Positions 38,414 through 39,928 of a DNA stretch of 64,000 nucleotides are shown here, piece after piece. Below the pieces are notes generated by a model that worked only from the letters and a program-made list of their open reading frames with translations, did not search any database and was not told the origin of the DNA. Within the stretch, counting starts at the first letter, position 1; every line of letters starts with the position of its first letter. Origin of the DNA: an uncultured bacterium (GTDB lineage: Bacteria > Hydrothermota > Tepidihabitantia > SM23-42 > CAYGYG01); NCBI GenBank assembly GCA_964354155.1, contig CAYGYG010000001.1, positions 11,121 to 75,120 on the forward strand, given 5' to 3'. Both the position numbers and the translations under genes were made by a program.

Positions 38414-39928
38414 ATGTCGACGTTGCTTGCCCTCCTGCTGATTTCCGTTAGTGCTGATCTCCGTTGGGTCGAGGTCGATGTCTCGCCCTTCAAAGACGGC
38501 CGCGCCGATTTTGTCTACAAAATCCGGTGGGATGTTAGCTCAGGCCAGATGCATGGCTTCTACCTCGAGGGTCTTTCCGTCGACCCTTACTTCGATTACG
38601 AAAACTCCCAGGCCCTGGACGGATCCGGCCGGTCCTACGCGCTTGACATAAAGCCGGTCGGGGGCCAAAAGTACGACGTTGTGCTGGCGGATGATCAGGC
38701 CTGTGGTCCGGGTGAGATAACCTACATCGTCCATTTCGGCGGCGACCTGGCCGGCGCGCGAAATCTGGCGACAACCACCAGCCCGGAGCATGGCGAACTC
38801 GTCGTTCTGAACTGGGCGCCTACTCAGTGGGACGAGTCGCTGGATCATTATACTGTCTATCTTCACTATCCGATCGAGGTGCCAGGACGGCAGGTCAGTC
38901 CAGACCAATACGGCTTCTTGACTGAACCTTTTATGAACAAGAGCTACCTGCTCGACTACTACGGACAGGAATACGAGGGGACCTATTATCTCACGGTGCA
39001 GGTCCACAAGACCAACCTTGCGGCTAATGAAAAAATGCCGATTCGGTGCTATGTGCCGGCGCGTTACTTCGAAACCGGGAAGTTCGGCCGAATCAAGCTG
39101 CCTACTGGAGAACGGCGGGGCGGTAGGGGAACTGGCATACCGTATGACATACTGTATACGCTGATTTCGATCGTCCCGTACCTCTTCTACTCAAACCGGA
39201 AAGCCAGGAGCGTCAAGAAGGCATTTGTCGATGTTCAGGCTTTGAGCTGGCTCAGGCAGGACTGGGTGCCGCCCAAAATAGAGGTCGCCACCTTCCGCAA
39301 GAGCGGCAAGATTGCCAAGCTCGATTTTGTCGAAGCCGCGCTGCTGCTTGATTTTCCTGTAAACAAGGTTCTGACCATAATGTTCAACAGCCTGGAGAAG
39401 TACGGAATCGTTAAGGTGAATTCGGTGAGCCCCTTGAGCATCAAGGTCCTGCACCTGCCGGTCGATGTCCGGTACTATGAAAGCGCCCTGCTGAGAACGG
39501 TCGGTGCCGACGGCACCGTGAGTGAGGATGGACTGAAGGCGGTGATTGGCGTGGTGGTTGATAAGGTCTCCCAGAAAATGTGGGATTGTGACGTTGAAGC
39601 GACCAAGGCCTACTACCAGAAGATGATGGTTGGTCCGGGGGTCGACGACCGATACAAAGAACCGGAGTACTATGACTACTTGATGGGCCGCGAGTTCAAC
39701 CGGCGCCGGCACTATTACGATATGGAACAGTCGATGGCGCCGGCCGCCGCGACGATCAAGAACTACTCAAATTTCATTCATAGCGAGGCCTGTCACAGCG
39801 CCTGCTATGTCCACACCGCCTGTCACGATGCCTGTCACTCGGCCTGTCATTCAGCCTGCCACTCAGCTTGCCATTCAGCCTGTCATTCGGCCTGCCATTC
39901 GGCTTGCGTGAGTGGAGGAGCACATTAG
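38414..39928 (+). CDS. Membrane protein with proposed DUF2207-like topology (signal peptide, extracellular domain, TM segment, cytoplasmic domain) ending in a Cys/His-rich tandem (Ala-Cys-His-Ser)n tail, the candidate substrate of the adjacent rSAM enzyme
   Basis: Signal peptide [14 protein letters not shown] and a TM segment [18 protein letters not shown]. The C-terminal 47 aa are [46 protein letters not shown] (11 Cys, 9 His). The DUF2207-like assignment is from architecture only. Confidence 0.7.
   Translation: [504 protein letters not shown]
39788..39913 (+). repeat. In-frame tandem 12-nt repeat (gcc tgy cay tcr) ×~10 encoding the (ACHS)n tail
   Basis: Ten units of 12 nt, one carrying a 6-nt insertion. 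The units differ mostly at synonymous third positions (tgt/tgc, cac/cat, tcg/tca, gcc/gct) while the encoded ACHS is conserved. Confidence 0.9.

Follow-up and report, generated by a model that had tools for sequence, protein, structure and literature searches.

Most known radical S-adenosylmethionine (SAM)/SPASM peptide maturases act on short, fast-evolving precursors that become secreted natural products. The presumed substrate described here is a Cys-His tetrapeptide repeat that is fixed to a membrane protein of 500–600 residues and kept nearly letter for letter across phyla in which the bodies of the proteins are approximately 40% identical; such conservation of the tail indicates a basic cellular role. 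It is encoded in a 64-kb stretch of contig CAYGYG010000001.1 from an uncultured bacterium (the whole of this stretch is hereafter the window), where it forms an (ACHS)n tail at the C-terminus of a 504-residue protein, the target. The gene that follows encodes a radical SAM/SPASM enzyme, and the cassette to which both belong is widespread, deeply conserved, and uncharacterized. The closest kinds of system described to date are Haft's CXXX-repeat radical SAM targets and the ACGX-repeat system, both of which were defined bioinformatically and are unexplored by experiment. Our literature search found no experimental characterization of CXXX-repeat systems, and queries on the CXXX repeat, peptide strings, TIGR accessions, and ACHS together with radical SAM found no paper on an ACHS-tail system.

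The likeness to the CXXX-repeat systems (TIGR04117 "Syntroph_Cxxx", PF27846 "tSAM_targ_Cxxx_rpt") lies in a C-terminal, period-4 Cys repeat in the target and in a target gene that adjoins a radical SAM/SPASM gene, often within a three-gene cassette. However, the tails of homologues score 7–19 bits against the CXXX model, for which the cut-off is 50, with 13.4 bits (E = 0.063) for the tail in the window, and the precomputed matches of homologue tails to PF27846 are weak. The TIGR04117 model is also peptide-sized, with 98 positions, whereas the target here is a membrane protein of 504–600 residues, and its unit is a fixed tetrapeptide, ACH[SD], in which His is invariant. TIGR04115 and TIGR04116 are presumably the maturase and accessory families of the CXXX-repeat system, and TIGR04115 is absent among the 25 best families of the enzyme. 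In the ACGX system (TIGR04340), a four-residue repeat starting with Ala-Cys likewise occurs with a SPASM radical SAM enzyme. The enzyme studied here aligns over the whole of the TIGR04340 model (9–320 of 341) but reaches 90.6 bits against a cut-off of 400. The third residue of the ACGX unit is Gly and not His, the target here is a large membrane protein, and the enzyme has an additional N-terminal domain, a putative recognition element for peptides that are made on ribosomes and modified after translation (RiPP recognition element, RRE), outside the aligned region.

Ranthipeptide and sactipeptide maturases (PapB/PapA, SCIFF/CteB, SkfB) share with this locus the combination of RRE, radical SAM, and SPASM domains and the regularly spaced Cys residues. 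Their family scores fall short of the cut-offs for PapB (NF047865, 75.8 versus 340) and StsB (NF045574, 103.7 versus 625), and the SCIFF maturase family TIGR03974 gives a faint match in the SPASM part only (E = 0.22). Unlike those systems, Asp is present in only 17% of the units here, and the substrate would be a protein tail without sign of release. QhpD, also a radical SAM/SPASM enzyme, cross-links Cys to Asp or Glu inside the protein subunit QhpC. As in our proposal, the modified segment of QhpC stays on the protein and no peptide is released, but QhpC is small and periplasmic and has no tetrapeptide repeat. On the target side, DUF2207 (PF09972) proteins resemble the window protein in having an extracytoplasmic N-terminal beta-sandwich, one or more transmembrane (TM) segments, and a cytoplasmic C-terminal part with a low-complexity tail (PMC10457818). 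This likeness extends to the C-terminal ending of an archaeal relative. However, canonical DUF2207 tails are Gly/Ser-rich, the window match is below the gathering score, and we found no paper linking DUF2207 with a radical SAM partner.

Selection on the tail peptide

The repeat array is in frame at the 3′ end of the 504-codon open reading frame (ORF) of the target (Table 1), exactly where the first-pass annotation of this DNA had placed it and in the frame in which it had been read. Its Cys-containing units number ten, and the final eight Cys are spaced exactly four residues apart. The annotation had counted ten units of 12 nt; the count was right, but the ACYVHT unit is 18 nt long. The variant units were correctly located at the edges of the array (units 2, 3, and 10). 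Tandem Repeats Finder reports a period-12 array whose copies match at 82–83%, the only tandem array in the window that scores at least 60. No two of the seven ACHS units have the same DNA sequence. Among the six that are contiguous, there are 31 pairwise differences, with 31 at third codon positions and 0 at positions 1 or 2, which corresponds to a proportion of nonsynonymous differences (pN) of 0 and a proportion of synonymous differences (pS) of 0.78, essentially saturated. The variable columns of these units are precisely the four third positions, a pattern that 4 columns drawn at random from the 12 would give with a chance of 1/495. The synonymous codon drift that had been described thus covers every difference among the contiguous units, while its list of Ser codons (TCG and TCA) was incomplete, as AGC and AGT are also used in the array.

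A protein search returned 96 relatives, and nearly all of the complete ones terminate in (ACH[S/D])n-ACVSGG[A/S][H/R]. When 185,579 species-representative genomes were scanned, one genome per species, repeat-bearing relatives were encoded at no fewer than 543 loci, most of them in uncultured anaerobes. Bacterial carriers are found in WOR-3, Stahlbacteria, Armatimonadota, Acidobacteriota/Aminicenantes, Planctomycetota, Hydrogenedentota, Lentisphaerae, Verrucomicrobia, Omnitrophota, Elusimicrobia, Clostridia, and others, and a few Asgard archaea carry the repeat too. The best match to the window protein (72% identity) comes from a WOR-3 genome, which makes this phylum the probable origin of the window. 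Among the matches listed, one carrier is not a metagenome-assembled genome, namely Acetivibrio mesophilus strain N2K1 (L078).

The peptide is kept while its codons are not. An identical 44-aa core (ACHS, ACYVHT, ACHD, (ACHS)6, ACVSGG) occurs in 32 loci, the window included, from WOR-3, Stahlbacteria, Armatimonadota, Sumerlaeota, Planctomycetota, Fischerbacteria, and others, and the remainder of the protein in these loci has approximately 41–72% identity to the window protein. Across the 32 loci, 22.6% of the bases and 58% of the third positions of the core differ. Nucleotide differences per 12 amount to 2.63 between units within a gene, 2.94 between units at the same position in different genes, and 2.95 as predicted by gene-body codon usage. 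These values are close to one another, which argues that there has been no concerted evolution or recent expansion. The synonymous sites of the units are close to saturation, and in 139 distinct (ACHS)n arrays with n of at least 3, adjacent units were identical in DNA in 21 of 626 cases (3.4%). In 158 proteins, the units consist of Ala (97%), Cys, His (86%, the rest being the Val of the last unit), and Ser (77%) or Asp (17%). Copy number ranges from 2 to 11 across the family and peaks at 8–9 in-register units. Changes in copy number occur over long distances and rarely; for example, among relatives that are approximately 70–75% identical, one protein has 4 units and the others have 8. The edge units ACYVHT and ACVSGG are invariant, and because they are kept across phyla, they are conserved features and not decayed copies.

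At short distance, we compared one close relative (L086), whose enzyme is 94% identical in protein and whose flanking genes have 88–94% nucleotide identity to those of the window. Its repeat has the same copy number and identical DNA. Window positions 38892..39928 and L086 positions 1..1037 have 98.65% DNA identity, with all 14 substitutions in these 1037 nt upstream of 39393 and the last ~540 nt 100% identical. The 3′ part of the target gene is more alike than the adjacent genes, which means either that constraint on it is unusually strong or that the segment was recently exchanged.

The first-pass annotation had interpreted the array as an old repeat selected as a peptide, without recent slippage, and had suggested computing dN/dS across the units and comparing related genomes. 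Both analyses bear the interpretation out, the first in the contrast between pN and pS of the contiguous units and the second in the core that is unchanged in 32 loci. It had also named two patterns that would speak against it: units that are identical in close strains but vary in copy number, and nonsynonymous differences as frequent as synonymous ones. Neither is seen, as copy number is equal in the close relative and pN/pS across all nine 12-nt units is 0.23, and the interpretation consequently stands. The tail is an old peptide module under purifying selection on its amino-acid sequence, including the number of units and the edge variants.

Some observations on the repeat concern its variants and its reading frame. 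Tail variants occur in distant branches (proteins P0089, P0091, P0094, P0095, and P0071–P0085). One group of distant-branch proteins has inserted ACVHD units and ends in ACVSKF, another runs on into CDSSCDSCHSS repeats, and the Asgard proteins have a C-terminal ending of their own. The repeat also opens alternative frames, as in the window ORFs at 39807..39911 (+) and 39868..40176 (+) (PVTRPVIQ... and MPFSLSFGLPFG...). Coding in other frames or on the other strand was considered and set aside, as it yields short ORFs without homologues and the ACHS frame is the one kept in 96 proteins. In database entries P0090, P0096, and P0114, a frameshift within the repeat, or an enzyme gene begun in a false frame, has led to spurious fusions and N-terminal extensions. 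For genome annotation, this means that what is detected as a period-12 "tandem repeat" can encode a peptide that is ancient and under selection, and that nearby ORFs which look frameshifted are artifacts.

Pairing with a radical SAM/SPASM enzyme

Target and enzyme genes are paired in a near-obligate manner, whichever of the two is taken as the starting point. From the target side, 71 genome loci have at least 3 kb of downstream sequence, and 66 of them have a radical SAM/SPASM gene as the immediate downstream neighbor on the same strand. From the enzyme side, 80 metagenome loci were picked by enzyme similarity or motifs alone. In 72 of these, the sequence just upstream of the enzyme gene encodes an ACH-repeat tail, and in the other 8, the upstream sequence is shorter than 170 nt, hence the pairing is 72/72 where it can be seen. 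A distant bacterial branch also has the pairing, as does an Asgard genome, in which the genes are in a different order.

The enzyme is a member of the radical SAM superfamily with a SPASM domain according to Pfam (Radical_SAM, 98.5 bits with a cut-off of 29.5; SPASM, 36 bits with a cut-off of 21.5), and the Cys residues of both parts are invariant (Table 1). Its best matches among solved structures are PqqE, BlsE, and SkfB (E = 9e-17 for SkfB). Judged by profile matches, the first ~125 residues are a PqqD-like RRE. A profile of the N-terminal 105 aa matches the lasso-peptide RRE TfuB1 (6jx3_B, E = 0.013) and PqqD (5sxy, E = 0.27), and Pfam PqqD is matched by 12 of 17 enzyme members, with a best E of 1.4e-5. 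The window enzyme alone matches the PqqD-like domain weakly (E = 0.16 and 0.0076).

The homologues of the target are 480–670 aa long. The DUF2207 N-domain matches target residues 20–207 weakly (18.5 bits versus a cut-off of 24.4, E = 0.0024), some homologues have a precomputed PF09972 match, and NCBIfam gives no match to the target protein. An AlphaFold (AF2) model built from 32 sequences has a predicted local distance difference test score (pLDDT) above 90 for residues 13–215 and approximately 300–400. Its last residues, 499–504 (VSGGAH, window 39908..39925), are modeled as a strand with a pLDDT of ~88, which suggests that the conserved C-terminal cap may dock onto the cytoplasmic domain. In Foldseek, the N-domain matches ribophorin I of oligosaccharyltransferase and the N-domain of M1 aminopeptidases. 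The central TM segment is stronger in homologues than in the window protein. DUF2207 proteins have an extracellular N-terminus and an intracellular C-terminus (PMC10457818), and from this topology, together with the signal peptide and the single TM segment, the tail is predicted to be cytoplasmic, in the compartment of the enzyme. A protein from the distant bacterial branch (P0076) is homologous to the target over its whole length, while an Asgard protein (P0094) has only the cytoplasmic "WDCD" region and the tail in common with it. The conserved module thus consists of the cytoplasmic domain and the tail.

Proposed modification of the tail and competing explanations

We infer an action of the enzyme on the tail, and with it a type of chemistry and a biological role. 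The tail is probably a dedicated, protein-borne substrate of the neighboring RRE-radical SAM-SPASM enzyme that is modified unit by unit. In such a mechanism, the PqqD-like domain would dock the enzyme either on the cytoplasmic domain or on the conserved segment YSxF[IV]xS[DE] that immediately precedes the repeats, and the enzyme would then work iteratively along the tail, with one modification for each four-residue unit. The likeliest chemistry, by analogy with PapB and other SPASM maturases, would be Cys-centered, such as thioether cross-links of the sacti- or ranthipeptide type. PapB is reported to form Cys-Asp thioethers in a repeated motif of PapA (PMC10739248). As only 17% of the units have Asp, whereas His and Ala hardly vary, the residue that acts as acceptor or partner here may not be that of known cases. 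Modification would yield a rigid tail that is still attached to the membrane protein and possibly binds metal or is redox-active. A bolder version, which we find possible but on balance doubtful, is a modification system of bacteria and Asgard archaea in which the RRE radical SAM/SPASM enzyme turns the invariant (Ala-Cys-His-Ser/Asp)n tail, at the cytoplasmic terminus of a ribophorin-like membrane protein, into a new protein-bound structure. This could be, for example, a ladder of Cys- or His-derived cross-links that serves as a multi-site metal-binding or electron-carrying element, with chemistry unlike the thioethers of sacti- and ranthipeptides and a role in housekeeping and not as an antibiotic.

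Several points weigh against a modified tail. Five loci (L011, L044, L060, L066, and L071) have an intact full tail and no radical SAM gene within ~4.6–6 kb downstream; in L011 and L066, the neighbors are unrelated genes (an enoyl-CoA hydratase, an extracytoplasmic function (ECF) sigma factor, MetH-like genes, and type II secretion genes). None of the curated NCBIfam families, including those of maturases, reaches its cut-off for the enzyme. The best full-length scores fall to tetrapyrrole-modifying enzymes, with 167, 127, 148, and 124 bits for AhbD (TIGR04545, cut-off 500), NirJ (TIGR04051/04055, the 148 bits being those of NirJ2), and AhbC (TIGR04546), respectively, against cut-offs of 500–650; consequently, the chemistry is not readable from homology. 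Lower scores go to GeoRSP, PqqE, WgkB, and, with the values given above, StsB, ACGX, and PapB. The AF2 model of the repeat is a helix of low confidence (pLDDT ~40). His is as conserved as Cys in the units, which equally fits plain metal binding, and a membrane protein of 450 aa is an unusual "leader".

The first-pass annotation had called the repeat a functional substrate or metal-binding motif. This was the right class of explanation, and its first half is the better supported because a radical SAM enzyme adjoins the target gene. An unmodified Cys/His site for metal or Fe-S binding, acting as a sensor, store, or cluster carrier, with the enzyme using the protein as a partner or scaffold, is unlikely in our view. 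Strict conservation of both Cys and His at period 4 would suit such a site, as would a helix like the modeled one, which would align the Cys and His side chains, and the tails that are kept where no enzyme gene is adjacent; low-complexity cytoplasmic tails are also a feature of canonical DUF2207 proteins (PMC10457818). However, the enzyme carries a PqqD-like peptide-recognition domain of a kind typical of peptide-modifying enzymes, every informative enzyme-side locus has the tail, and chelation has no obvious need of Ala in 97% of units at position 1 or of invariant ACYVHT and ACVSGG edges. The same enzyme architecture next to a Cys-rich C-terminal core is the classical layout of a RiPP, and the membrane protein encoded by the third cassette gene could act in export. 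A released RiPP, cut from its membrane-protein "leader" after modification and exported, is nevertheless improbable: no protease or ATP-binding cassette (ABC) transporter is conserved in the cassette, the third gene itself is not conserved in distant branches, and the genes around the cassette are housekeeping genes. The tail is moreover nearly invariant over many phyla, archaea included, unlike fast-diversifying antibiotic cores.

Consecutive units also make CXXXCH strings, and the best-scoring curated families of the enzyme are the heme b and heme d1 enzymes AhbD, NirJ, NirJ2, and AhbC. This raises the idea that overlapping CX3CH motifs (C-H-S-A-C-H) are tetrapyrrole attachment sites for an AhbD/NirJ-like enzyme, in a cytoplasmic tail resembling a multi-heme protein. 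We give this very little credence, as the scores are far below the cut-offs and come from generic SPASM neighbors aligned over the catalytic core only. The AhbD/NirJ-type alignments begin at enzyme residues 124–133, past the putative RRE. The enzyme bears a peptide-recognition domain, no tetrapyrrole or cytochrome c maturation genes are nearby, and known heme c attachment occurs outside the cytoplasm. Finally, a period-12 tandem array could be a recently expanded, slippage-prone microsatellite or contingency locus without a selected peptide function, and entries P0090 and P0096 are indeed frameshifted within the repeat and fused to the next gene. These entries, however, are single metagenome reads or assemblies, and the units are only 82–83% identical. 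Recent slippage is refuted by the purely synonymous differences among the contiguous units, a peptide that is identical across phyla while its codons are scrambled, the unchanged copy number in L086, and the 3.4% of adjacent units that are identical in DNA.

Other parts of the cassette

The features of the cassette in the window are collected in Table 1. The third gene is present in 64 of the 71 target-side loci. Its product has four TM helices and a C-terminal beta-sheet domain (AF2 pLDDT 90.4); it belongs to no Pfam or NCBIfam family, and no fold in the PDB matches it with E below 0.06. In the distant branches L002 and L003, the third gene is not detectably homologous to it. A role as a universal part of the system was therefore dropped, which leaves the target tail and the enzyme as the invariant core.

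Table 1. Coordinates and details of the target, enzyme, and neighboring features in the window.
Feature	Coordinates	Strand	Details
Small upstream gene, 129 aa	37932..38321	+	Gene call on identical contig L004
Target gene, 504 aa	38414..39928	+	ORF; 96 homologues, nearly all ending in the repeat
Predicted domains of the target			Signal peptide; extracytoplasmic beta-sandwich 13-215; TM ~246-275; cytoplasmic winged-helix-like and helical part ~300-460; Cys-His tail
Repeat array, proposed modification site	39788..39913	+	ACHS, ACYVHT, ACHD, then (ACHS)x6, then ACVS
Units 1-3 of the array			GCCTGTCACAGC = ACHS; GCCTGCTATGTCCACACC = ACYVHT (18 nt); GCCTGTCACGAT = ACHD
Six contiguous ACHS units, in order			GCCTGTCACTCG, GCCTGTCATTCA, GCCTGCCACTCA, GCTTGCCATTCA, GCCTGTCATTCG, GCCTGCCATTCG
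Last unit (unit 10) of the array			GCTTGCGTGAGT = ACVS
C-terminal cap GGAH and stop codon	39914..39928	+	Conserved; most frequent ending in the family, ACVSGG[AS][HR]
Spacer between target and radical SAM gene, 244 nt	39929..40172	+	Lineage-specific
Radical SAM/SPASM enzyme, 450 aa as longest ORF	40173..41525	+	Pfam; the actual start may lie a few codons downstream
Putative PqqD-like RRE of the enzyme, residues ~20-124	40230..40544	+	Profile matches
CX3CX2C motif of the enzyme (C137/C141/C144)	40581..40604	+	Invariant in a 27-sequence alignment
SPASM Cys of the enzyme			C347, C361, C379, C416, C419, C425, C429; all invariant in 27 sequences
Third cassette gene, 302 aa	41525..42433	+	Start overlaps the radical SAM stop codon

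Homologues of the small upstream gene, with many invariant residues, immediately precede the target in 34 loci from several phyla, and the gene has no match in Pfam or NCBIfam. A promoter-like TTGATT-16-TATAAT sequence lies before it at 37885..37912, and the gene may be an accessory gene, as the first gene of the operon and a fourth component of the cassette.

While target and enzyme genes abut or overlap in most other loci, the window has a spacer between them. It contains G/A-rich direct repeats (GCAAAGGGCA twice and AGAGCATGGGGCA twice) and two copies of ATCACTGYAATCG that are 21 nt apart. The ATCACTGYAATCG pair recurs with the same spacing at 4770/4791 (region 4680..4850), just upstream of a promoter-like TTGACA-17-TAGAAT sequence; there are 4 matches to the motif where 0.11 are expected by chance, and the pair may be a binding module for a regulator. 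The L086 spacer is rearranged by indels and keeps both types of motif. In a search of the whole window against Rfam, the sole match is a tRNA gene at 13058..13129 (-), and there is none in the spacer. Elsewhere in the window, behind an extension of ~540 residues without a Pfam match, the 707-aa ORF at 34497..36620 (-) has the N- and C-terminal domains of GreA/GreB, at residues 547–693 only.

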